Assembly: GCA_038045365.1 (NCBI GenBank)
Contig: JBBSYH010000005.1
Span: 12,713-64,733, forward strand
From: Nanobdellota archaeon
GTDB lineage: Archaea; Nanobdellota; Nanobdellia; Pacearchaeales; GW2011-AR1
Length of the DNA: 52,021 nucleotides
Direction: 5' to 3'
The stretch's first letter is position 1; every line of letters starts with the position of its first letter. Made by a program: the position numbers and the translations under genes. The notes beneath the pieces are model-generated. The model did not search any database. It was not told the origin of the DNA and worked only from the letters and a program-made list of their open reading frames with translations. Below, in pieces: positions 1 through 48,042 of this stretch.

Positions 1-96
1 GTACTACGACCACTGGAGGAACAACTACTGATGGAACGACAACAGGTGGTACTACGACCACTGGAGGAACAACTACTGATGGAACGACAACAGGTG
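1..96. repeat. 48-bp perfect tandem repeat, 2 copies, with a degenerate third copy starting at 97
   Basis: Bases 1-48 and 49-96 are identical (gtactacgaccactggaggaacaactactgatggaacgacaacaggtg). Each copy encodes a 16-aa T/G-rich unit. Confidence 0.9.
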
Positions 97-173
97 GTAC
101 TACTGGTACTGGAAGCGTTATTAGTGGAAATGTTATTAATGATAATGAATTTCTAAGATATTACTTTAGATGA
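1..173 (+). CDS. 3' end of a Thr/Gly-rich repeat protein (partial; N-terminus lies outside the window)
   Basis: Frame 3 is open from the window edge to TGA 171-173. It translates as TTTTGGTTTDGTTTGG x2, then GTGSVISGNVINDNEFLRYYFR*. The stop overlaps the next ATG (ATGA at 170-173). Confidence 0.5.
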   Translation, partial: TTTTGGTTTDGTTTGGTTTTGGTTTDGTTTGGTTGTGSVISGNVINDNEFLRYYFR

Positions 174-910
174 ATATTGGAGAAATGAAAAAGAGAGTGA
201 TTGGTAAATATTTAAGTGGTCTTGCTACATTTGCGTTATCTGCTTCCCTTTTTGCACAAGAGAAAACTGTCGTGATTAATGAATTTGTTGTTGATCCGAA
301 AAAAGATAGGACTGGTGATGGCTTTATCACTGCTTCTGACGAATTCATTGAACTATATAATTTATATGATGAACCAATTGATTTGTATAATTGGCGTTTG
401 GAATTGATTGATACGACGCCAGAATCAAAAGCGTTGAGCGGGACAATTCAACCACAGAGCTATTTTGTTTTAATTAATCCTATTGGCTCTCAAAATAACA
501 GTGGAGAAATAAGATTATTGGATGATATGGGAAAAGTTGTAGATTCTGTTATTTATGGAACATGGCAAGAAGCAGTAGTTATGGGTGGGAATTCTTCAGG
601 ACTATTTGACGAGTCTCTGTCACGATATCCTGATGGGGGGACTAATTGGGTTAAGACATATGCCACTATGGAGAATGCGAATCAGCCTCTATCTGGACTT
701 GCACTTTTGATTAAAAAAATGGAAGGAAATATGGATGGAGTGCATGTTTCTTCTTCAAGCGTGTTAGATAAAAAGCTTATTGTTCAGAAGTCTTTAGATA
801 TGAAGTCCTGGAGTCAAATATATACAAATGAGGCGAACATGACTTTGAATTATGTTGATACGAACGCCTTAAATTCTGCAACGATGTTTTATCGTGCTTT
901 TTGGAAGTGA
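170..910 (+). CDS. Secreted or membrane-anchored lamin tail domain (LTD) protein
   Basis: N-terminal hydrophobic signal (LSGLATFALSASLFA). LTD-like signature VVINEFVVDP...DEFIELYNLYDEPIDLYNWRL...YFVLI...GEIRLLDDMGKVVDSVIYG. Start is coupled to the upstream ORF by ATGA. Confidence 0.6.
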   Translation: MNIGEMKKRVIGKYLSGLATFALSASLFAQEKTVVINEFVVDPKKDRTGDGFITASDEFIELYNLYDEPIDLYNWRLELIDTTPESKALSGTIQPQSYFVLINPIGSQNNSGEIRLLDDMGKVVDSVIYGTWQEAVVMGGNSSGLFDESLSRYPDGGTNWVKTYATMENANQPLSGLALLIKKMEGNMDGVHVSSSSVLDKKLIVQKSLDMKSWSQIYTNEANMTLNYVDTNALNSATMFYRAFWK

Positions 911-918
911 TTCCTCTC

Positions 919-1170
919 TTATGTTTTGTAAATCGTGCTTCGATGCCCTAACTCGATGACATAGATGATAAGTTGAAGATCGCGGACATCTAGAATAACG
1001 CGATAGTCATCGACTCTTAATCGATAGTATTTGCTGTTGTACATGTGCTTGACAAATGTGTGAGGACGAACTTTAATTCTATCAAGAGCTGCGCCGATTC
1101 GTTCTCTGGCTTTGGGAGGTAAAGTGGCTAATTGTTTCTTTGCTTCGTTTGTAAAAATGATCTCATACAT
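919..1170 (-). CDS. relE: RelE/ParE-family type II toxin
   Basis: 83 aa. FTNEAKKQLATLPPKARERIGAALDRI...YYRLRVDDYRVILDV...IIYVIELGHRSTIY is the typical RelE/StbE pattern. Overlaps the upstream small gene by 8 nt. Confidence 0.7.
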   Translation of the reverse strand: MYEIIFTNEAKKQLATLPPKARERIGAALDRIKVRPHTFVKHMYNSKYYRLRVDDYRVILDVRDLQLIIYVIELGHRSTIYKT

Positions 1171-1390
1171 TTATATTCAACTCTTTTTTGACATCTTTCC
1201 ACTTGTGGACTTTACCTTTCTTTATGTCTTCTTCTGCGCGCGCAATGCTTTTCTTTGTCTCTTCGCTTAATTCCATTCTATCCTCGATTAAATCCCATAT
1301 TAAATTTTCATAACTTTCTTTTTCGTGGAGCTTCATGCGTTTGAGTCTGTTGAGTAAATCTGTGCTTATTTGAATAGTTGTTTCCGCCAT
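1163..1390 (-). CDS. Putative antitoxin partner of the RelE-like toxin
   Basis: 75-aa acidic helical protein immediately upstream of the toxin, with an 8-nt overlap. TATA-like box at about 1414-1420, at leaderless distance from the ATG. Confidence 0.5.
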   Translation of the reverse strand: MAETTIQISTDLLNRLKRMKLHEKESYENLIWDLIEDRMELSEETKKSIARAEEDIKKGKVHKWKDVKKELNINV

Positions 1391-1428
1391 AGTTATTATA
1401 TAAGTTGCTATAGTTTATAAGCTTTTCT

Positions 1429-1443
1429 CTGTGCTGAAAGATT
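1429..1443 (-). promoter_or_regulatory. Shared upstream motif, copy 1 (minus strand AATCTTTCAGCACAG)
   Basis: The identical 15-mer ctgtgctgaaagatt also occurs at 2049-2063, and a 12-mer core at 3041-3052. Lies just upstream of the TATA-like box of the RelE operon. Confidence 0.5.
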
Positions 1444-1476
1444 TTAAAAGAGTCTTTATGGTCTAGTGAATAGAGA

Positions 1477-1803
1477 TCATCGCAGTTTCCTAACAAATTC
1501 CTCTCTAATTGAACGTTTTTTCTCCTCGGAAAGAGTGAACAGATACTTTTTAATCATTGCTTCGGTAATAGTCATGATATAATTAAGCTTGATGATGCTA
1601 TTTTTAATAGCGCCTTCTTCTTTTGTAAGTGGAATACCTTGCATGTGAGGGTTGCTTGTTATGCCTGCTAAAACAATGTTTTCATATTCTTCAAAGAGCA
1701 CGAGTGCAGGACGCGTTTTAATCTCGGAACTGCCGGTAAATTGAACAAACGCCACAATGACATCACCAAACTTATACTTTCTCCCAGACCTCGTCGTATT
1801 CAT
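1477..1803 (-). CDS. mazF: MazF/PemK-family type II toxin (endoribonuclease-like)
   Basis: 108 aa. KFGDVIVAFVQF...TRPALVLFE...AGITSN is the PemK/MazF-like N-terminal pattern. Paired with an upstream small ORF. Confidence 0.6.
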   Translation of the reverse strand: MNTTRSGRKYKFGDVIVAFVQFTGSSEIKTRPALVLFEEYENIVLAGITSNPHMQGIPLTKEEGAIKNSIIKLNYIMTITEAMIKKYLFTLSEEKKRSIREEFVRKLR

Positions 1804-2005
1804 TATCCCAGAGTTCTTTCATCTTCTTTTTTTGGATTTCAAAAAGAAAACGATCGTACTGAACCTCTTTTTGTTTTTTAAGTTTGAGATAAAGATGAAG
1901 AATCTTCTCAAGCAATTCATTGTATGTCTGACGCGGATGTTCCTTTGCTTCTTTAAGCTTTTCAATGACTTGTTTGTTTAATAGAATTGTTGAATCTTGG
2001 CTCAT
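1772..2005 (-). CDS. Putative antitoxin partner of the MazF-like toxin
   Basis: 77-aa helical charged protein directly upstream; overlaps the toxin ORF by 32 nt. TATA-like TTATATAT at about 2028-2035 on the minus strand. Confidence 0.45.
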   Translation of the reverse strand: MSQDSTILLNKQVIEKLKEAKEHPRQTYNELLEKILHLYLKLKKQKEVQYDRFLFEIQKKKMKELWDNEYDEVWEKV

Positions 2006-2048
2006 ATATAATAGATGTATAACTCATATATAAGTCTTTGGTTTTTCC

Positions 2049-2063
2049 CTGTGCTGAAAGATT
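2049..2063 (-). promoter_or_regulatory. Shared upstream motif, copy 2 (minus strand AATCTTTCAGCACAG)
   Basis: Identical 15-mer to 1429-1443, about 14 nt upstream of the TATA-like box of the MazF operon. Confidence 0.5.
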
Positions 2064-2441
2064 CTAGCGATAGGAAGAAGATTGTGCTGAATGTAATTTA
2101 AGCTTTCTACAAAGGTCTTCAAGAGACGCCCTATTCTTATTCTCCGCGTGAATGATAAGAGTTTTTGAAGGAACTGATAACTTACCTTCCTTTCCAAGTC
2201 GCCAGCCGTCTGATAGAACAACATAGCATCCATTGATAAGAAGTTCAAACTCACTACAATGAATGCCTTGTTCTAATCTATATCCTCCTAAAATATCCAT
2301 GGCTCTCAACATTGTTTTTCTTGAAACTATGATTTCGCATTCCTCTTTTGATTGTCTAACTAGTGATTCTTGCATCTTGGGATCGTAGTTCTTCAAAGTC
2401 TCTTCATCCCTATAAATTTTATGCGTTAGATAGCGTATCAT
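2064..2441 (-). CDS. Hypothetical protein (125 aa from the first ATG; the ORF track extends it to a TTG at 2483)
   Basis: Open frame only; no motif recognised. Its 3' end abuts motif copy 2. Confidence 0.3.
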   Translation of the reverse strand: MIRYLTHKIYRDEETLKNYDPKMQESLVRQSKEECEIIVSRKTMLRAMDILGGYRLEQGIHCSEFELLINGCYVVLSDGWRLGKEGKLSVPSKTLIIHAENKNRASLEDLCRKLKLHSAQSSSYR

Positions 2442-2597
2442 GGATAATGCGCATTTATAGAGGTAGATAAACCTTTCCCTCAAAATAATCGTTGTTTATA
2501 GGACAATACAATCAATTTAATTTCAGATTATAAAAATGCGAACCTTTGAGACGAAAAAGAGCTCTAAAGATTCGCTTAAGGTAGATTAAGAGAACTC

Positions 2598-2852
2598 TTA
2601 TTTTAGCTGAAAATCTCGCAAATCTTTAGCCAATAATTCTAATTCGCCACCTTGTATTTCGCCATCTCGATTAGTATCGTACCTCTGTATCGTGGAATCT
2701 AAAGACTGGTGTGCTGTTTCATTCATTTTGGGTCTAAAATAAACATCTAATGCAATTAATCCAGCTATAAATGTGAGTGCGCAATAAGTTATATTTTTCT
2801 CACTTTGAGTCATTGATCCCCATGAAGTTGGGCCTATATCATATAAGGTCAT
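2598..2852 (-). CDS. Small membrane-anchored EF-hand protein
   Basis: 84 aa. One TM segment (ITYCALTFIAGLIALDVYF). Canonical 12-residue EF-hand loop DTNRDGEIQGGE (D1 N3 D5 G6 I8 E12). TATA-like TTTAAATA about 20-26 nt upstream of the ATG. Confidence 0.6.
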   Translation of the reverse strand: MTLYDIGPTSWGSMTQSEKNITYCALTFIAGLIALDVYFRPKMNETAHQSLDSTIQRYDTNRDGEIQGGELELLAKDLRDFQLK

Positions 2853-2892
2853 TGATACTTGGGCTCTTCTTTGTATTTAAAACTTTCTGTGG

Positions 2893-2998
2893 AGGCAGAA
2901 GAATCCTGCCTGACGCCCTGTGAGGAGATAATGATAAGCGCTGAAGGCGGGTGCGTTCGGCGCTTCGCGCCTCACTGATATTGAGGCTATTGTTTTTG
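2893..2998. ncRNA. Candidate structured RNA or regulatory leader (GC-rich island; strand unresolved)
   Basis: Visibly GC-enriched against AT-rich flanks. Helices are AGGCAG/CTGCCT (2893-2911) and GTGAGG/CCTCAC (2920-2975). AAGCGC/GCGCTT competes with GGCGC-TTC-GCGCC. CCTCA/TGAGG (2970-2986) is followed by T5 (2993-2997). No ORF. Confidence 0.3.
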
Positions 2999-3040
2999 AG
3001 AAGAGGGAAGGGTTTTGAATTAAAGCGAACTACTTAAGTA

Positions 3041-3052
3041 TGCTGAAAGATT
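3041..3052 (-). promoter_or_regulatory. Shared upstream motif, copy 3 (12-nt core; minus strand AATCTTTCAGCA)
   Basis: tgctgaaagatt matches the core of the motif at 1429 and 2049. Followed on the minus strand by a TATA-like TTTAATT (about 3016-3022) pointing into the GC-rich element. Confidence 0.35.
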
Positions 3053-3159
3053 TTGGAGATGCTTAAAGGTTTGAGCTCTTGGAAATATCAAACTTTTGAT
3101 AGGAGATTTCTATAAAAATTAAAATTATAAAAAATAAAAAAATAAATTTTGGGGTTGGT

Positions 3160-3327
3160 TTAGCGGCGACGTGCGCCGTAATTGCGCATTAGTTTAGTAA
3201 CTCCTATAACTAAGAAAGACAACGCAATAAGCCAAGCAGACATATCTTCTCCTATGTCAACGCTTATAAGAGGTAATGTATAAAGAACACCGATAAGAGT
3301 CACTAACCAAGCTGTTATTTTTGCCAT
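3160..3327 (-). CDS. Small two-TM membrane protein (55 aa; below the ORF-track cutoff)
   Basis: Translated by hand: MAKITAWLVTLIGVLYTLPLISVDIGEDMSAWLIALSFLVIGVTKLMRNYGARRR*. Strong Shine-Dalgarno AAGGAGGT 7-8 nt upstream. Oligo-T runs follow downstream on the minus strand. Confidence 0.5.
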   Translation of the reverse strand: MAKITAWLVTLIGVLYTLPLISVDIGEDMSAWLIALSFLVIGVTKLMRNYGARRR

Positions 3328-3379
3328 ATAATACCTCCTTTCAATATCTTCATTAATTATTATATAAGGAAATACTGGT

Positions 3380-3913
3380 TTATATATTTACTGATTTGTT
3401 TTTCTTATTGAACGTGATGTGTGGAGGGCAACGAGCTGTTGTAATTATGCGTTGATATCTTGCTTGTTGGTAATATAAATCGTCTTGGGCATCCAGTCGT
3501 GCTTTTTTATCTTTGTAATATTGTTTAATGTCCTGGTCTTTTAGTATTGTAGTATCTCTTTGGTCTTTTTGCCAGAGAGCTTCTGCTATTTTTCTTGCAT
3601 CTTTGCGATATTGTGCGAATAAAGTCTTGGAAATATCGACTTTGGGGTGTTTAATTTTGGCTGAACTAAATGGATAATAGTTATCTGAAGGGGGAGAAAG
3701 GGTTTTAGGTGGGTTAGAAAAGCGAGAAGATGTAGGGGGAATGGAAAAACCATAGTTTTTGGCTTCTTGAGTTTCCCAACAGAACTCGGTTTGGGTTTCT
3801 TTGACAGGAACACCGCGCATATAATTCTTTTGTTCTGGGGGAAGACTGCGCCAGTTAGCCATACGTTCATGATATTCTGCTTCTATCTCTTCTAGAGAGC
3901 GTCTTTTTTGCAT
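3380..3913 (-). CDS. Hypothetical protein (177 aa)
   Basis: Long open frame in plausible operon order with 3160-3327. No motif recognised. Confidence 0.35.
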   Translation of the reverse strand: MQKRRSLEEIEAEYHERMANWRSLPPEQKNYMRGVPVKETQTEFCWETQEAKNYGFSIPPTSSRFSNPPKTLSPPSDNYYPFSSAKIKHPKVDISKTLFAQYRKDARKIAEALWQKDQRDTTILKDQDIKQYYKDKKARLDAQDDLYYQQARYQRIITTARCPPHITFNKKNKSVNI

Positions 3914-4147
3914 GTTTTAGAGAAGAAAGTAGATTATAAAAAGATTATGAATATTAAATTAAACCCTTAAAGGAGGAGGTTTAATCTTGTGAAAACAATG
4001 TGATCAAACGTCCTCCTTTGGGGAAAAAGAGGTGATATGAATATAATAGATATGTGTAGTATTTAAAGGTTTTGCTTATTAGTTGTATATTAAAATTGTA
4101 TAAAGGCTGTTTTTTAAATTGTCGACGATAGTGGGTGTTTTTGGGTG

Positions 4148-4165
4148 TTTAAACAGCTGTTTAAA
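4148..4165. promoter_or_regulatory. Perfect 18-bp palindrome TTTAAACAGCTGTTTAAA (candidate operator)
   Basis: Perfect dyad about 135 nt upstream of the wHTH gene at 4301. Its 12-nt core AAACAGCTGTTT recurs at 4427-4438. Related AAACAGGTGTT occurs at 4538, 4575 and 4608. Confidence 0.35.
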
Positions 4166-4300
4166 TTTGGTTTTTTGGTGTTTTTGTCTTAAATTATTAC
4201 TTTTTTATTATTGTTTGTGAGTAATTTAACATATATGTCAAATTGATTATTAGGCCTTAAAAACACAAGATTTATAAATGTGGGGGGTTGATATATCTTT

Positions 4301-4945
4301 ATGTTTGGATGGTTATTTGGGAAAAAAGATAAAACATTAGAGAAAAAAACTGAAAAGGGATTTGATAATGTTAAAAGAGATATTGAAGTAGTTGGGAAGT
4401 GGATTAAACACCTGGATTCTAAGGATAAACAGCTGTTTGATTTGATTAATGAGTTAAAAGTGGAGATGTCGTCGATAAAAGATGAAGTTGAAAGCTTAAG
4501 AGAAGGGATAGATTTGATTTCTACAGGGGGAGGAGACAAACAGGTGTTTGAAAAATTACCTGTTCAGAACAAACAAACAGGTGTTTTAGGTGTTGAAAAA
4601 GGTGTTCAAACAGGTGTTCAAACAGGTAATTTTTATGAAATTCTTAAAGGATTAACAGGTAATGAAAGATTATTAATATTTACCTTAATGAACAGTGAAA
4701 TGAAGCTGAGTTATGAAGATTTAGCCCTACTTTTAGGAAAAGAGAGATCTACTATTAGGGGGCAGATAAATTCAATAAAACAGAAAAGAGATGGTTTAAT
4801 AGAGGAATTAAGTGAGAAAAATGGGAAAAAGAGGGTGTTTGTATCTGGAGAAATAAAGGAAAAACTTGCAAAATACGCAAAAGTGAGAGTTGGTAATAAA
4901 AAAGATGTTCGTGTTAATAATAAAAATAAGGAGGTTGATGCATAG
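4301..4945 (+). CDS. Coiled-coil / low-complexity linker / C-terminal winged-HTH protein
   Basis: 214 aa. N-terminal heptad-like region, GV(Q/E/L)(T/K) linker encoded by 12-nt repeats (ggtgttcaaaca x2 at 4601-4624), and a C-terminal HTH-like LTGNERLLIFTLMN...SYEDLALLLGKERSTIRGQINSIK. Confidence 0.45.
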   Translation: MFGWLFGKKDKTLEKKTEKGFDNVKRDIEVVGKWIKHLDSKDKQLFDLINELKVEMSSIKDEVESLREGIDLISTGGGDKQVFEKLPVQNKQTGVLGVEKGVQTGVQTGNFYEILKGLTGNERLLIFTLMNSEMKLSYEDLALLLGKERSTIRGQINSIKQKRDGLIEELSEKNGKKRVFVSGEIKEKLAKYAKVRVGNKKDVRVNNKNKEVDA

Positions 4946-5119
4946 ATTTGGTATTAATTAGATTTGTGTGAATTATTAAATTTAGAAAATGAGAAAAAGT
5001 GAGAGAAAATTGGAATAAATTATCAATTTTTCTGAGGAATTAGGAGGAAAAGAGTAAAATGGATATGTATATACTACATTTTCGTTTAAACGACTAAATT
5101 AGTTTATTAAATAGGTTGT

Positions 5120-5803
5120 TTATAGCTCGCGAAGTTTTTGAATAGTTGATAATGAAGCAATTTTCTTTAATTCAGGAGATATTGAAATGAAAATTTTCTT
5201 GTTGTTTTCCTTGATTTTTAGAAGAGGAATTCCCTTTTTTATAAGGCGTTGTATGTAATCCCGAATTGAACTTTCTGTTAATGATAGCCTTTCAGATAAT
5301 AAAGAATAATCTATAAGGTATCCTTGATTTTCTAGAGTATAAAGAAGCGAAAAAACCTGCATTTCTTGTTTTGTTAAGTGTTTAAATTTAATACGAACTT
5401 CTTCTTTGATAGCATCGATAGATTCTAGTATTACTGGGAGTTCTTTTAGGGGGTTGACCCCCTTATTTCCTATGTGTTGGTCTGTCTGACTGTCTGTCTG
5501 ACTGTCTGCTGGAACCCCCTTATTTCCTGTGGAAATATCAAAAATTGGGGTTTTTAAGGGTTTATAGGGCAATTTTTGTGTTTGTTGTGCTTGAAAAGAA
5601 GAATATGTGTTGAAACTTTGCTGTTGGTTTGTTGGGTTTGTGTGTTGGTTTGTTGGTCTGTTGGTTTGTTGGTTTGATGGAGGAGGCGTAAGATAATTTT
5701 TTAAGAGTTCAAGTTCTTGATTTATTGAATAAAGCTGTTCTTTTAGTTCTGTTATATCTTGTTTTACTTTAAAAAATGATTCTTTAATTTTCACTTCTTC
5801 CAT
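5120..5803 (-). CDS. Coiled-coil / low-complexity linker / C-terminal winged-HTH protein (same architecture as 4301-4945)
   Basis: 227 aa. N-terminal coiled coil, PTNQ and DSQT repeat linker, and C-terminal LTKQEMQVFSLLYT...SLLSERLSLTESSIRDYIQRLIKKG. Confidence 0.45.
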   Translation of the reverse strand: MEEVKIKESFFKVKQDITELKEQLYSINQELELLKNYLTPPPSNQQTNRPTNQHTNPTNQQQSFNTYSSFQAQQTQKLPYKPLKTPIFDISTGNKGVPADSQTDSQTDQHIGNKGVNPLKELPVILESIDAIKEEVRIKFKHLTKQEMQVFSLLYTLENQGYLIDYSLLSERLSLTESSIRDYIQRLIKKGIPLLKIKENNKKIFISISPELKKIASLSTIQKLREL

Positions 5804-6130
5804 TTAGAGATCTATATCTTGGGAATTATAAAGATTATTGTAGTTGGGATTGGATTGTGGGTTTTGCTTTTTTTGATAAATTTGGTAGATTGTGTCTGAA
5901 AGTCTCCATCTGCGACGTTTTAAATAATCTTTTCCTTTAGGATTTTTGTTTATTTCTAAGATTAGATTTTTCTTTTTTAACTCTTCGAGAAGAGAACGAA
6001 TAAATTCTTCGTCTCTTGCAATTTCCTTGCTTATTTGTGATGTGAATTTTGCTTCTGGTGTAGTTGAGAATAAATAATGAAGGATTTGCTCTGATACTTT
6101 GTCTTTTTTGGATTGTGAGATAGTTGGCAT
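5804..6130 (-). CDS. Small winged-HTH DNA-binding protein
   Basis: 108 aa. EQILHYLFSTTPEAKFTSQISKEIARDEEFIRSLLEELKKKNLI is MarR/ArsR-like by eye. Its stop directly abuts the start of 5803 (no gap). Confidence 0.45.
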   Translation of the reverse strand: MPTISQSKKDKVSEQILHYLFSTTPEAKFTSQISKEIARDEEFIRSLLEELKKKNLILEINKNPKGKDYLKRRRWRLSDTIYQIYQKKQNPQSNPNYNNLYNSQDIDL

Positions 6131-6256
6131 GAAGAAGAAAGAGAAGAATAATATATAAAGATGAGGGTGGTGGGAATGATTATTCCTGCGACTGAAGAGT
6201 GAATGTAAAGAATTAAATAACTAGTTCTTTGTAGAGATTGTTCGGGAGAAAATAAT

Positions 6257-8848
6257 ATGGATGAAATAAAGTATCTGAAAAAGCCGAATGGAATAAGTGA
6301 AATCAAAGATATACTTCACCCTCTTGTTCGTGAGTGGTTTTTTTCGCGCTTTGAGGAGTTTTCGTTGACGCAGTTGTATGGGGTGAAGCAAATAAATGAT
6401 AGAAAAAACATATTAATTAGTGCTCCTACTGGAGGAACTAAGACATTGACTGCTTTTTTGGGGGTTATTAATTATTTAGTTGAATTGGCTTTGAGGAAAG
6501 AACTGGAGAATAAAATATATGCTTGTTACTGCTCTCCTCTAAAAGCTCTGTCTGGAGATATTTATGTTAATTTAGTAGAACCTTTGAAAGAAATAAAGGA
6601 ATTGGCAAAGAAAAAAGAGATTGAAATGCAGGAAATCAGAGTTGGATTAAGAACAGGAGATACTGATACAAAGGAAAGAGTAAAACAAGCCAAGAATATA
6701 CCACATATTTATGTTACAACTCCTGAAAGTCTTGCTATTGTACTTACAACCAGCAAGTTTGTGGAGGGCATTAAGGCCTTGGAATTTATTATGATTGATG
6801 AGATTCATGCATTGACTAATAAGAGGGGAGTTTATTTGAGTTTGACTCTGGAAAGACTGTGCAATTTTAGTGTTATAGAGCCTGTTAGAATTGGCTTAAG
6901 TGCAACAATTTCTCCCTTAGAAGAAATAGCTCGTTTTTTAGTGGGTAAGGGAAGGGATTGCCTAATTGCTAATGTTAAATTAAATAAAAAAATTGAAATT
7001 GGGCTTGATTATCCTGGAGAAAGCATTCTTGAAGCAGAGAATGTTGAGAGCCAGAAGAAACTTTATTATTTACTTGATGAATTAATTGAAAAAAACAGGA
7101 CAACTTTGATATTTACAAATACCAGAGCAGCTACTGAAAGGATTATTCATTATTTAGATCTGCATTTTCCAAAAAAATATGCTGGCTTAATAGGGGCACA
7201 TCATAGCAGCATGAGCAAGGAAAAGAGGTTTGAGATTGAGAATAGATTGAGAAATGGAGAATTGAAGGTTGTTGTAAGCAGCACCTCGCTTGAATTGGGA
7301 ATTGATATAGGAAGTATTGACTTGGTTGTATTATTGAGAAGTCCGAAAAGTGTTGCAAGGGCGCTGCAAAGAATTGGAAGAGCAGGGCATAAACTCCATG
7401 AAAATCCTAGGGGTGTTTTTATTGTTCTTGATAGGGATGATTTGGTTGAGTGTGGGGTGTTAATGAAGGGGATAATTGAAAATAAGATTGACAGAGCTGA
7501 AATTCCAAAGAACTGCCTGGATGTATTGGCTCAACAGATTTATGGAATGGCTATAAGCAAAATATGGGATGTTGATGAAATGCTTGTTACAATAAGGAAG
7601 AGCTATTGTTATGAGAATTTAGGCAGAGAGGATTTTCTTGATATTGTTAGTTATTTGGCTGGAGAATATGCATTAGAGCATAGACATGTTTATGCAAAGA
7701 TTTGGTATAATGAAAAAGAGAAAAAGATTGGGAAAAGAGGCAAATTGGCTAGAGTGATTTATATGACGAACATAGGGACTATTCCTGAAGAGGGGTTTAT
7801 CAATGTGGTTGTACAAAGCGGGGGGGAAAAGGGAAATATTGTGGGTAAGATTGATGAAGGATTTCTAGAAAAGATGAAAAGAGGAGATATCTTTGTTTTG
7901 GGAGGAGCGAAATACCAGTTTTTATTTTCAAGAGGAATGAAAGCTTATGTTAAATCAGGAGTAACTAAAAATCCTACAATTCCTTCCTGGTTTTCAGAGA
8001 TGCTGCCGTTAAATTTTGAAGTTGCACTGGAAATAGGGAGGTTCAGGAAGCTTGTAAATGAAAGATTAGATGATAAAAATAAATGTATTGAGTTTATTGC
8101 GGAGCATTTATATTGTAAAAAAGAAGTAGGAGAAGAAATTTATGATTATTTTAGTGAGCAGAAAGAGTTTGCTGAGGTTCCTGATGAAAATAAACTAATA
8201 ATTGAGAAGTTTAAAGAGGAGAAGGAGTATTTGGTTTTCCACAGCTGTTATGGGAGAAGAGTTAATGAGGCGCTGGCGAGAGCTTATGCTTTTTCTGCTG
8301 CAAGATTAAGGTATAGGGATGTTGAGATAGGAGTTGGAGATCATGGTTTTTTTATTGCTGGAGAGAAACTGGATGAGGATAGAATAATTTCTTTGATAAA
8401 AAGCAAAGAATTGAGGAGCGTCTTAGCAGAGGCAATTGAAAAGACAGAGATTTTGCAGAGAAGATTTAGACATTGTGCTGCGAGAAGCCTGATGATTTTG
8501 AGAAACTATAAGGGAAGAGAGAAAAGTGTGGGAAAACAGCAAGTGCATTCAGGATTTTTGCTGGCTGCTGTGAGAAAGATAAGCAATGTGTTTCCTATAC
8601 TGCGCGAGGCGAGGCGCGAGGTTTTGGAAGATGTGATGGATATTGGGAATGCGGAGAAAGTTTTGAAATGGATTGAAGAAGGAAAAGTTAAAGTAAAGCG
8701 AATAAGAACGCTGTTGGTGTCGCCGTTTGGTGTAAATTTAATAATACAGGGGCGCTCGGACTTGATTAAAATGGAAGATAGGGCGAGTTTCTTAAAGAGA
8801 ATGCATGAACTGCATTTGAAAGTGATTGATAGTAAAAAGAATAGTTAG
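6257..8848 (+). CDS. lhr: Lhr-family DEAD/DEAH-box helicase (Lhr-core type)
   Basis: 863 aa. Motif I SAPTGGTKT, motif II MIDEIH, SAT, TNTR, HHSSMSKEKR, SSTSLELGIDIG, QRIGRAGH, plus a long C-terminal domain as in Lhr helicases. Confidence 0.85.
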   Translation: MDEIKYLKKPNGISEIKDILHPLVREWFFSRFEEFSLTQLYGVKQINDRKNILISAPTGGTKTLTAFLGVINYLVELALRKELENKIYACYCSPLKALSGDIYVNLVEPLKEIKELAKKKEIEMQEIRVGLRTGDTDTKERVKQAKNIPHIYVTTPESLAIVLTTSKFVEGIKALEFIMIDEIHALTNKRGVYLSLTLERLCNFSVIEPVRIGLSATISPLEEIARFLVGKGRDCLIANVKLNKKIEIGLDYPGESILEAENVESQKKLYYLLDELIEKNRTTLIFTNTRAATERIIHYLDLHFPKKYAGLIGAHHSSMSKEKRFEIENRLRNGELKVVVSSTSLELGIDIGSIDLVVLLRSPKSVARALQRIGRAGHKLHENPRGVFIVLDRDDLVECGVLMKGIIENKIDRAEIPKNCLDVLAQQIYGMAISKIWDVDEMLVTIRKSYCYENLGREDFLDIVSYLAGEYALEHRHVYAKIWYNEKEKKIGKRGKLARVIYMTNIGTIPEEGFINVVVQSGGEKGNIVGKIDEGFLEKMKRGDIFVLGGAKYQFLFSRGMKAYVKSGVTKNPTIPSWFSEMLPLNFEVALEIGRFRKLVNERLDDKNKCIEFIAEHLYCKKEVGEEIYDYFSEQKEFAEVPDENKLIIEKFKEEKEYLVFHSCYGRRVNEALARAYAFSAARLRYRDVEIGVGDHGFFIAGEKLDEDRIISLIKSKELRSVLAEAIEKTEILQRRFRHCAARSLMILRNYKGREKSVGKQQVHSGFLLAAVRKISNVFPILREARREVLEDVMDIGNAEKVLKWIEEGKVKVKRIRTLLVSPFGVNLIIQGRSDLIKMEDRASFLKRMHELHLKVIDSKKNS

Positions 8849-8932
8849 GATGGTTTGATAGTATATTTAGTTGATGAAAAGATTGAGGGGCCACATAGAA
8901 AGATTTATATATTTTGTAGACGTACAAAAAGT

Positions 8933-9391
8933 ATGCCTTATAGAGAAATAAAAGTCAGGAACAACAATAAATATTACTATAGAGCAATCTCTCTAAGAAA
9001 AGGGAGAAAGGTTGTGAAAAGAAGATATTACTTAGGAAAAAATCTTTCACCCGAAAGTCTGAAGGATAAAGAAAGCAGAGTGGACGCTACGCTTCGTTTA
9101 GACAAAAGTAAGAAGAGTATTGCTGTAATAAAAGATAAAATTATTTCTGTACTTAAAAGATATCGTGTTAAAAGAGCCGGCATCTTTGGCAGTTATGCGC
9201 GGGGAGAGAACAAAGAAGGCAGTGATGTTGATATTCTTATTGAGCCGCCTAAGGGAATGGGTCTTGCTTTTGTCGCTCTATCTCTAGATTTAGAAAAGTC
9301 TCTTGGGAAAAAAGTTGATGTTCTAACATATGATGGAATAAGCCCTTATTTAAAAAAGTCGATAATGGAAGATGAGCAGAGGGTATTATGA
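8933..9391 (+). CDS. mntA: Minimal nucleotidyltransferase (MntA-like antitoxin) with an N-terminal basic extension
   Basis: GIFGSYARGENKEGSDVDILIE is the GSx10-SDxD NTase signature. First ATG is at 8933, with TTTATATA 23-30 nt upstream (the ORF track starts at TTG 8855). ATGA overlap with the next gene. Confidence 0.75.
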   Translation: MPYREIKVRNNNKYYYRAISLRKGRKVVKRRYYLGKNLSPESLKDKESRVDATLRLDKSKKSIAVIKDKIISVLKRYRVKRAGIFGSYARGENKEGSDVDILIEPPKGMGLAFVALSLDLEKSLGKKVDVLTYDGISPYLKKSIMEDEQRVL

Positions 9392-9720
9392 CAAAACATA
9401 GTGATGTACCCTATATTCAGCACATGCTTGAAGCTATTGAAGATATAGAAGAATCTATAGGGGATTTGTCAAAAGAGGAATTCGTAGCAAATAAAGACGC
9501 ACGAGATGCTAATATAAGAAGGCTTGAAATTATTGGTGAGGCAGTCAAAAATCTTTCAAAAGAATTTAGAGAGAAGAATAGTGAAATTGAATGGAATAAA
9601 ATTGCAGGGACAAGAGACAAGGTTATTCATAATTACTTCGGAGTTAACCTTGCCATTGTTTGGGAAATCATAAAGAAAGACCTTCCTGAACTCAAGAAAA
9701 AACTAAAGAAGATAGTATAG
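9388..9720 (+). CDS. hepT: HEPN/DUF86 toxin (HepT-like)
   Basis: 110 aa. Rx4H motif in GTRDKVIHNYFGV. 4-nt ATGA overlap with the NTase gene. Confidence 0.75.
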   Translation: MTKHSDVPYIQHMLEAIEDIEESIGDLSKEEFVANKDARDANIRRLEIIGEAVKNLSKEFREKNSEIEWNKIAGTRDKVIHNYFGVNLAIVWEIIKKDLPELKKKLKKIV

Positions 9721-32619: not shown

Positions 32620-32738
32620 TGATACAGAAAACAAACTCCTGCTTTTAAGCTGGAGTTCTCCGTCGTTTGTTTTCTGTCTAAAAAACTCCAAAAAAACTGC
32701 GGACTTTAGGTCCGCAGATGTCGCAAGGAGTTTTTTAT
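32620..32738. repeat. Structured repeat unit A, copy 1 (two hairpin modules)
   Basis: Matches 45991-46108 with 3 differences. A1 is a 12-bp stem CAGAAAACAAAC/GTTTGTTTTCTG. A2 has outer stem AAAAAACTCC/GGAGTTTTTT and inner stem CTGCGGAC/GTCCGCAG. Confidence 0.9.
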
Positions 32739-32858
32739 TATGTCAAGGAACTTGAAGAAAACCTTGCCTTGAAAGGCAAGGTTGTTCCTTGAGCATCCAA
32801 AAGTCCTAAACAAACCATGGGCTTTAGCCCATGGTCAAACACAAGGACTTTTTGATTT
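32739..32858. repeat. Structured repeat unit B, copy 1 (two hairpin modules)
   Basis: Matches 36224-36343 with 4 differences. B1 has outer stem TCAAGGAAC/GTTCCTTGA and inner stem ACCTTGCC/GGCAAGGT. B2 has outer stem AAAAGTCCT/AGGACTTTT and inner stem CCATGGGC/GCCCATGG. Confidence 0.9.
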
Positions 32859-47969: not shown

Positions 47970-48042
47970 AGCCCCATAGTATAGCGGTCAAGTATTCAGG
48001 CCTTTGGCGCCTGAGACCCCGGTTCGAATCCGGGTGGGGCTA
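47970..48042 (+). tRNA. tRNA-Gln (anticodon UUG); no intron and no encoded CCA
   Basis: Folded by hand. Acceptor AGCCCCA/TGGGGCT; D arm GTAT-AGCGGTCAA-GTAT (two G.U pairs); anticodon arm CAGGC-CTTTGGC-GCCTG (anticodon TTG); variable loop AGAC; T arm CCCGG-TTCGAAT-CCGGG; discriminator A. Confidence 0.9.

Follow-up and report, generated by a model that had tools for sequence, protein, structure and literature searches.

A hairpin repeat at the boundaries of small toxin-antitoxin-type units in a Nanobdellota archaeon and its possible role as a cassette junction

Stem-loops that recur between small genes are known from several systems, and these offer the closest comparison for a repeated hairpin that we studied in the genome of a Nanobdellota archaeon. 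The DNA analyzed is a stretch of 52,021 nucleotides (contig JBBSYH010000005.1 of assembly GCA_038045365.1; hereafter the window), and the subject is a GC-rich island at positions 2893-2998 together with a repeat at 2936-3007, which overlaps the 3' part of the island and is built around a 21-nt hairpin, H (2955-2975). We tentatively read 2936-3007 as the main copy of a lineage-specific cassette-junction element, that is, a cassette boundary that would insulate units from one another and permit them to be reshuffled. Judging from the annotated sequence, the element appears to sit between small, independently transcribed units, mostly of toxin-antitoxin type, just upstream of the next B recognition element (BRE)/TATA promoter.

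Promoter-plus-stem-loop (PeSL) cassettes of T4-type phages mediate gene shuffling (Arbiol et al. 2010, PMC2839356): a short promoter and stem-loop unit is repeated between small non-essential genes of a variable region, much as it is here, and this repetition is thought to allow shuffling, as we propose for the present locus. Unlike PeSL, the element described here belongs to a cellular archaeal genome and has a BRE/TATA promoter, a sequence-invariant core, and a stem-loop whose T-run is directed away from the promoter's gene, so that the stem-loop is not a terminator of the upstream gene. Integron attC sites and clusters of attC sites lacking integron-integrases (CALINs), archaeal ones included, likewise form one-strand, toxin-antitoxin-rich cassette arrays at a fixed locus, and are separated by imperfect palindromes whose similarity is greatest inside a lineage (Ghaly et al. 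2022, PMC9668308). Unlike those arrays, this one comes without an integron integrase (IntI) that we could find in the genus and lacks, as judged by eye, the R' and R'' words; H is a 21-nt stem-loop with an invariant core, the element keeps a fixed distance to the downstream promoter, and each unit has a promoter of its own. In the papers searched, on integrons in archaea and on intergenic palindromes of DPANN toxin-antitoxin loci, we found no description of the element, although such arrays may already be classed as CALINs among the archaeal attC sites of PMC9668308.

Three further likenesses concern the hairpin itself. On the minus strand its core, GGCGCGAAGCGCC, holds the word GCGAAGC in a 5-bp stem with a 3-nt loop, the layout of the mini-hairpin DNA GCGNAGC of Hirao and co-workers; PMC13037366 calls GCGAAGC an "extraordinarily stable mini-hairpin" and cites the layout for phage replication-priming sites and for the promoter hairpin of the N4 virion RNA polymerase. 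Those sites lie on single-stranded phage or plasmid DNA and have known enzymes, whereas the likeness here is a seven-letter word. Archaeal transcription termination is U-tract dependent (PMC8716108), and a hairpin followed by a one-strand T-run of 4-7, as found here, resembles such intrinsic-terminator-like signals. Unlike them, the hairpin of the tandem layout runs antisense to the genes next to it, and its sequence is conserved far past the needs of a terminator. Bacterial repetitive extragenic palindromic and interspersed mosaic elements (REP/BIME), which go with REP-associated tyrosine transposases (RAYT), are, like the present repeat, a family of intergenic imperfect palindromes; the repeat differs from them in its low and stable copy number, its fixed position relative to promoters, and its lack of a linked Y1 transposase.

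Anatomy, copies, and covariation of the hairpin

The repeat and the neighboring parts of the island are made up as follows.
2936-3007, plus strand: the full repeat (covariance model, 74 bits, E 1.8e-14), in the order left flank, hairpin H, TCA...TTGAGGCTATT, T-run
2955-2975, strand unassigned: the conserved hairpin H, 21 nt, from comparisons of 34 and 48 copies
2969-2997, plus strand: a second, weaker hairpin, GCCTCA/TGAGGC (2969-2974 with 2982-2987), followed by TATTGTTTTT, from a pattern scan
2893-2935, strand unassigned: a private GC-rich spacer of 43 nt between H and the promoter, with the AGGCAG/CTGCCT helix and the GTGAGG arm
2874-2888, minus strand: the predicted archaeal-type promoter of open reading frame (ORF) 2598-2852, with AGAAAG (BRE-like) followed by TTTTAAATA (TATA)

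Hairpin H has a stem of five base pairs, GGCGC/GCGCC (2959-2963 with 2967-2971), closed by the loop TTC (2964-2966) and flanked by a conserved 2x2 mismatch (T2957.C2973 and C2958.T2972) and the outer pairs T2956-A2974 and G2955-C2975; read on the minus strand, where GCGAAGC occupies 2962-2968, the mismatch becomes tandem G.A/A.G. Two sets of copies were compared: an alignment of 34 collected copies (A1), which is the basis of the covariation tests and of the covariance model, and a second set of 48, in which counts were anchored on the core. A1 contains 12 invariant and 10 nearly invariant columns, the five GC stem pairs are all but invariant in it, and the 13-nt core is identical in 45/48 copies, with one of the three variants turning GCGAAGC into GCGTAGC. 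The outer pairs vary in a paired manner. The T2956-A2974 pair (alignment columns 23-41) is UA in 18, GC in 6, AU in 2, and GU in 1 of the 34 copies and TA in 28, GC in 6, CG in 3, and AT in 2 of the 48, and the outermost pair is GC in 17, GU in 8, and AU in 3 of the 34, all of these being counts that kinship among copies inflates. Because four pair types occur, including a double change at the covarying pair in all three copies of genome G162, a formed hairpin is the simplest reading. Across the tight hairpin and its outer pairs, 14 cells of the 34-copy alignment were altered on both sides, a value matched by 0/500 shuffles. Either strand may be the one that folds: G-U is tolerated on the plus strand, being seen 5 times at the outermost pair, where the mirror A-C type is absent (48 copies), and GCGAAGC is found on the minus strand.

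A search with 2860-3010 returned one more copy from this genome, located on contig C13 (5133-5204) and aligned over 2936-2995 only, and many partial matches in related genomes, all at ~2948-3002. The covariance model found 1-4 copies per genome in all 17/17 genomes of the genus. When the order was sampled evenly, it found copies in 22/151 genomes, our own included; copies occur in 21/105 sampled genomes of the same family, across about ten genera, and in 0/45 genomes of eight other families. By these counts, the repeat is a low-copy element restricted to a single lineage of tiny groundwater archaea. Within window positions 1-7000 the model finds only the copy at 2936-3007. A two-mismatch match to the core at C13:1457 was judged by eye not to belong to the family and was not returned by the model, the hairpin repeats at window positions 32620-32858 are unlike H in sequence, and the region upstream of radA in the same genome has no hairpin and no radA-type promoter box. 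We also considered and rejected a viral origin, as the 17-nt core is present in 51 viral contigs and the family flanks in 0/51. At the viral loci L068, L072, L116, L073, L077, and L099, on AT-rich contigs that are unrelated, this GC core stands inside longer inverted repeats; GGCGCTTCGCGCC may accordingly be a recurrent stable hairpin word of independent origin.

The island as a whole lies in a 307-nt gap flanked by two minus-strand ORFs, 3160-3327 (55 amino acids [aa]) and 2598-2852 (84 aa). It reaches 53.8% GC at 2893-2998 against a window mean of 33.2%, and of all the 106-nt windows that the 52 kb contain, 0.056% are as GC rich; the host genome (583 kb in 40 contigs, 85.7% complete) averages 32.9%, and genes such as those for Lhr, an EarA-like protein, and DUF7557 mark it as archaeal. 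Stops interrupt all six frames of the gap, and the sole listed ORF touching the island is a mechanical 48-aa frame (2777-2923, plus strand), in agreement with an earlier sequence-only reading that had called the island GC rich and non-coding. A degraded gene was rejected as well, on the grounds of these stops and of copy-to-copy variation that is hairpin-like rather than codon-like, with no tblastx-type search made. Conservation is confined to the 3' half (~2936-3007), and within it covariation to the tight hairpin. The spacer (2893-2935) had no match at E < 0.001 in its own genome or 60 relatives, the matches touching it being short and at E 0.026 or worse, and the covariance model detected no second, degenerate hairpin copy in it; 2936-2954 is common only to the window copy and the C13 copy.

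The sequence-only reading had interpreted the island as a riboswitch- or attenuator-like RNA with mutually exclusive helices. The words that it listed are where it placed them (AGGCAG 2893, CTGCCT 2906, GTGAGG 2920, CCTCAC 2970, AAGCGC 2936, GCGCTT 2960, GGCGCTTCGCGCC 2959-2971, TGAGG 2982, and TTGTTTTT 2990), and the pattern scan likewise flagged a terminator-like signal on the plus strand, namely the weaker hairpin at 2969-2987 with its T-tail, which is antisense to the adjoining genes. The pairings exist, yet the folding energy is only moderately below that of shuffled sequence, with z = -2.2 (plus strand) and -2.8 (minus strand) for RNA over 2880-3005 and z = -3.1 and -2.5 for DNA over 2890-3035. 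Folding alone is not far beyond chance, and part of the stretch is raised above chance because it is conserved elsewhere. The alternative helices, which are the substance of the switch proposal, fared less well. In the 34 copies, GGCGCG/CGCGCC paired no better than with shuffled partners, CCTCA/TGAGG (GCCTCA/TGAGGC) showed no covariation above shuffled partners, and AAGCGC/GCGCTT (AAGCGCTGAA/TTCGGCGCTT) was paired in 50.6% of cells versus 49.8% when shuffled; AGGCAG/CTGCCT and GTGAGG/CCTCAC use sequence without a counterpart in other genomes. Because the alternatives either fail to covary or use private sequence, the mutually exclusive helices are peculiar to this copy. What remains of the proposal is a conserved structured element that has both relatives and covariation, so that a lack of homologs or covariation does not count against it.

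Neither strand offers the setting of a leader. The plus-strand promoter that had been proposed, TATTTAAAA, lies at 2874-2882 rather than 2872-2880, and its purine-rich BRE side faces the minus-strand ORF, whose ATG is ~26 nt from the center of the box. Downstream on the plus strand there is no gene for leader control, the next ORF (3160-3327) being on the minus strand, and on the minus strand the element is upstream of the BRE/TATA at 2874-2888 and hence outside any leader. Rfam searches over the window at gathering score returned only a tRNA-Gln at 47970, and permissive filters over 2700-3200 returned one chance match to a long noncoding RNA (E 7.1) outside the stretch, so that the family match suggested as a check was absent at both thresholds. 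A tRNA or split tRNA was tried and rejected, as ARAGORN gives only the tRNA-Gln (47969) and the core misfits a T-arm by eye.

Junctions between units and the exchange of cassettes

The following features make up the junction and its surroundings.
2949-3059, minus strand: the whole conserved junction unit (motif, module M, A-run, hairpin H), by BLASTN
3005-3035, plus strand: module M, GGGAAGGG...GAATTAAAGCGAACTA, also found next to H in other genomes and oriented either way relative to it
3041-3058, minus strand: the junction motif, CTCCAAAATCTTTCAGCA (motif copy 3 of the sequence-only reading), from a repeat search (families D5 and D13)
919-3327, minus strand: the cassette array, from the ORF list and Pfam matches
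4301-4945, plus strand: F0, a coiled coil with a C-terminal helix-turn-helix (HTH), no Pfam family
5120-5803, minus strand: F1, HTH_11/HTH_36/DnaD_N-like
5804-6130, minus strand: F2, EarA-like

Copies cluster on one strand at a spacing of 0.6-1.6 kb, with four copies within 3.1 kb in G005:C77, three each in G162:C11 and G146:C27, and many pairs. We compared nine loci, the window and eight regions from other genomes, and in feature lists inspected by eye all 21 of their hairpins are antisense to the surrounding small genes. Pfam assigns these genes to MazE-type antitoxins with PIN toxins, DUF7557/VapB-like proteins with ParE, MazF, DUF2283, and small membrane proteins, and many have no Pfam family. 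On the gene strand, a typical joint begins with a stop codon, the motif (A)AATCTTTCAGCA, and module M (TAGTTCGTTTTAATC), continues with an A-run, TAGCC..CAAT, the hairpin, GAACGCGCCCGACC, and a purine run, and ends with an A/T box, ~25 nt, and an ATG. Hairpin, purine run, A/T box, and start together form a repeated promoter/stem-loop unit between small genes, the promoter being predicted from sequence. When same-direction frames of at least 45 codons were counted, the start lay 47-57 nt past the core in 21/48 copies and no more than 220 nt past it in 37/48. An upstream same-direction frame ended 13-240 nt before the core in 38/48. A T-run of at least 4 within 45 nt 3' of the core is present on the hairpin strand in 40/48 copies versus 11/48 on the gene strand. 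A second layout, in which the hairpin is inverted relative to module M, was seen in 12 copies, that on C13 included; several of these lie between converging gene ends, and the A/T box is at no fixed distance.

Module M is found in an extended form, TTCGTTTAATCACTCTTAACCGCCCTTTT, upstream of H in 12 copies, and a long form, GGGCGGTTAAGAGTGATTAAGCGAA, precedes the hairpin at L008, L002, L015, L019, L021, and other loci; at L015 module M and its own copy make a perfect inverted repeat. It fits poorly, by eye, as a repeat of the CRISPR (clustered regularly interspaced short palindromic repeats) type, a C/D box, or a Shine-Dalgarno leader. Beside the second hairpin copy of the genome (G000:C13 ~4870-5130, L002 1240-1500) lies a GC-richer, ORF-poor stretch of ~230 nt. 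Its two ends complement each other (GGGCGG..TGGT with ACCACCCGCCC), a hint of a structured RNA; no match to L002 was obtained from Rfam.

The junction motif occurs in the window in two further copies, at 1423-1446 and 2043-2066, each directly upstream of the promoter of a DUF7557 antitoxin gene. There are 23 exact CTTTCAGCA sites in the genome, and the extended form AATCTTTCAGCA is restricted to the three window junctions and C4:9542. Relatives also carry the motif at junctions, where it is partly palindromic (GCTNAAA..TTTNAGC). It is placed after each cassette, directly upstream of the next BRE/TATA, and it looks like a candidate operator for the toxin-antitoxin promoters.

The window's own junction (2949-3059) shares 76.7% identity with one in G005 (L056 4648-4761) in a BLASTN alignment of 116 nt. 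Its distance from core to start is 106 nt, versus 47-57 nt in the 21/48 copies mentioned above. The sequence CACAG occurs twice in 2884-2930 (in CTCCTCACAGGG and CTCCACAGAAAG), on either side of the AGGCAG/CTGCCT hairpin, and CACAG(A/G)G occurs once at each of the promoters at 1410 and 2035; this arrangement looks like a small insertion or duplication within the promoter-proximal box. Since the center of the TATA box is only ~26 nt from the ATG at 2852, the mRNA of ORF 2598-2852 is probably leaderless. As transcribed, the array runs from the 55-aa ORF (3327-3160) through the junction to an 84-aa orphan (2852-2598) and a 139-aa ORF (2483-2064) and continues with a DUF7557 and MazF-like pair (2005-1477) and a DUF7557 and ParE pair (1390-919). 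The 84-aa protein has no relatives in 120 genomes of the family and so is the product of an orphan cassette gene; a membrane helix is predicted in it, and it matches EF-hand weakly, at an E of 0.0017 that falls short of the Pfam cut-off.

The HTH-type genes F2-F1-F0 adjoin the array in 7/9 loci, which come from different genera (protein clustering); at L055 a partial F0 stands at the contig end, and at L058 F0, F1, and F2 are all absent from the 12 kb examined. Cassette contents vary among genomes while F2-F1-F0 recur, and these three proteins are candidate partners of the junction motifs. The same MazE-PIN unit, at 72-85% protein identity, is found at differing array positions in four genomes, and between L053 and L059 its nucleotide homology spans both flanking hairpins.

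What the element may do

In the cassette-boundary reading, which we favor with the reserve stated at the outset, the hairpin and U-run would end antisense transcripts, whether these leave the promoter region or arrive from a converging gene, and the ending of such transcripts would insulate each unit from its neighbor. The same ~110-nt joint between unrelated units would also give recombination a foothold, and we propose that unit content differs at one conserved locus because the repeated joint permits recombination.

Several observations weigh against this. The hairpin is found at one of the four array promoters, the junctions at ~1420 and ~2040 carrying the CTTTCAGCA motif alone, and it is therefore not required by every unit. 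A terminator need not hold 13 nt, a loop, and a 2x2 mismatch invariant over about ten genera, and this invariance of core, loop, and mismatch points to recognition by a specific protein partner. At the tandem-gene copies, the source of the antisense transcripts that would have to be stopped is hypothetical. The nucleotide homology of the MazE-PIN unit stops at the coding limits when L056 is compared with L059 and with L058, and shuffling itself is inferred from the comparison of distant genomes.

The close rival, possible but on the unlikely side, is that H is a protein-binding site, in duplex or extruded form, which serves as an operator or activating site for an adjoining HTH protein and co-regulates the cassette promoters. 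It would account for the invariance of the sequence itself, not of structure alone (the 12 invariant and 10 nearly invariant columns), for the fixed distance upstream of the BRE/TATA, and for the HTH genes F0, F1, and F2 beside 7/9 arrays, and the conserved 2x2 mismatch would make for unlike half-sites and a fixed orientation. However, compensatory changes at the outer pairs are predicted by base pairing and not required of a duplex site, 12 copies are without the standard promoter geometry, several of them between converging gene ends, and the conserved one-strand T-run is left unexplained.

We consider it unlikely that the locus is a small RNA gene, which would yield a plus-strand hairpin RNA of ~45-100 nt ending at the T-run and starting either at the symmetric TATA box, used in reverse, or further upstream. 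Hairpin and T-run do stand on the plus strand, most copies have an A/T box ~20 nt upstream of the hairpin, and the outermost pair allows plus-strand G-U (5 against 0 of the mirror type). The stretch is also the GC-richest spot of an AT-rich region, and GC-rich spots in AT-rich surroundings are a known mark of archaeal RNA genes. Against this, the box seems aimed at the minus strand because the conserved purine run is on its gene side, the second layout (12 copies) has no box at a fixed distance, and no Rfam family was matched.

An integron-like recombination site without a known integrase, an attC analogue folding as single-stranded DNA, is a distinctly unlikely explanation. The one-strand arrays at a fixed chromosomal locus with their 0.6-1.6-kb spacing would suit it, as would the toxin-antitoxin-rich contents that differ between genomes; the core matches the mini-hairpin GCGAAGC, very stable as DNA (PMC13037366), and integrase-less integron-type arrays (CALINs) are reported from archaeal metagenome-assembled genomes, Nanoarchaeota included (PMC9668308). 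Yet 0/17 genomes of the genus have an integron integrase above the TIGR02249 cut-off. In these 17 genomes the best recombinase of each leaves TIGR02249 positions 185-237 unmatched, and no contig with a hairpin array carries any of the listed recombinase matches; in our own genome a single Xer-like recombinase is encoded, on contig C40. By eye, the 48 copies lack RYYYAAC...GTTRRRY and instead have GTTCG...CGAAC, of opposite polarity. The element is, moreover, tied to the start of the next unit and not to the end of the previous one, and the last units in G005 (L056) and G146 (L055) have no element after them. A bolder form of this idea, to which we give equally little credence, would make the hairpin a recombination or priming site of an integrase-less cassette-capture system peculiar to one DPANN family, with GCGAAGC extruded and recognized by F0, F1, or F2.

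A REP- or MITE-type (miniature inverted-repeat transposable element) selfish repeat spread by a transposase is quite improbable. The repeat is intergenic and palindromic, and copies differ in how it is oriented with respect to module M; it is nevertheless limited to 1-4 copies per genome and stable over about ten genera, Y1 (IS200/RAYT-type) transposases are present in 7/17 genomes of the genus versus 17/17 for the hairpin, inspection of the aligned flanks showed neither terminal inverted repeats nor target duplications, and the family flanks are on 0/51 of the viral contigs with the 17-nt core. The least probable account, a riboswitch or attenuator with antiterminator and terminator helices, can draw its competing pairings in this single copy, where the minimum-energy fold takes AAGCGCUGAA/UUCGGCGCUU in place of the family hairpin, but those helices are unconserved or in private sequence, the plus strand has no downstream gene, the minus-strand element precedes the promoter and is not in a leader, and no Rfam family was matched, so that a ligand- or protein-sensing RNA switch is very unlikely.

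Other features and implications

Outside the array, a nucleotidyltransferase and HepT-like (HEPN) pair (8855-9720, plus strand), a further pair of toxin-antitoxin type, directly follows an Lhr-type helicase gene (6257-8848). On contig C40 (G000:C40 ~7398 and ~8345, minus strand), a repeat of ~100 nt, ..ttgcactaaaattcaatccctaacgg GAGAGTTTAACAGTGATTAAGAGAC tacgctcggttgcacc.., occurs twice at an interval of 947 nt, the two copies closely following the gene for the one Xer-like tyrosine recombinase of the genome.

One lesson is of a cautionary kind: in AT-rich archaeal genomes, a GC-rich island in which alternative helices can be drawn should not be labeled a switch until covariation bears them out. 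As to the element itself, its invariant core, conserved mismatch, and covarying outer pairs imply a specific protein or enzyme partner. If the cassette-capture idea were true, a single fixed chromosomal locus would acquire, shed, and reorder units of the toxin-antitoxin and orphan kinds. More generally, the element marks a conserved, fast-changing toxin-antitoxin locus with a defined joint in very small archaeal genomes, and if this joint does guide the exchange of units, genome-reduced DPANN archaea would keep a flexible accessory gene pool without a recognizable integron.

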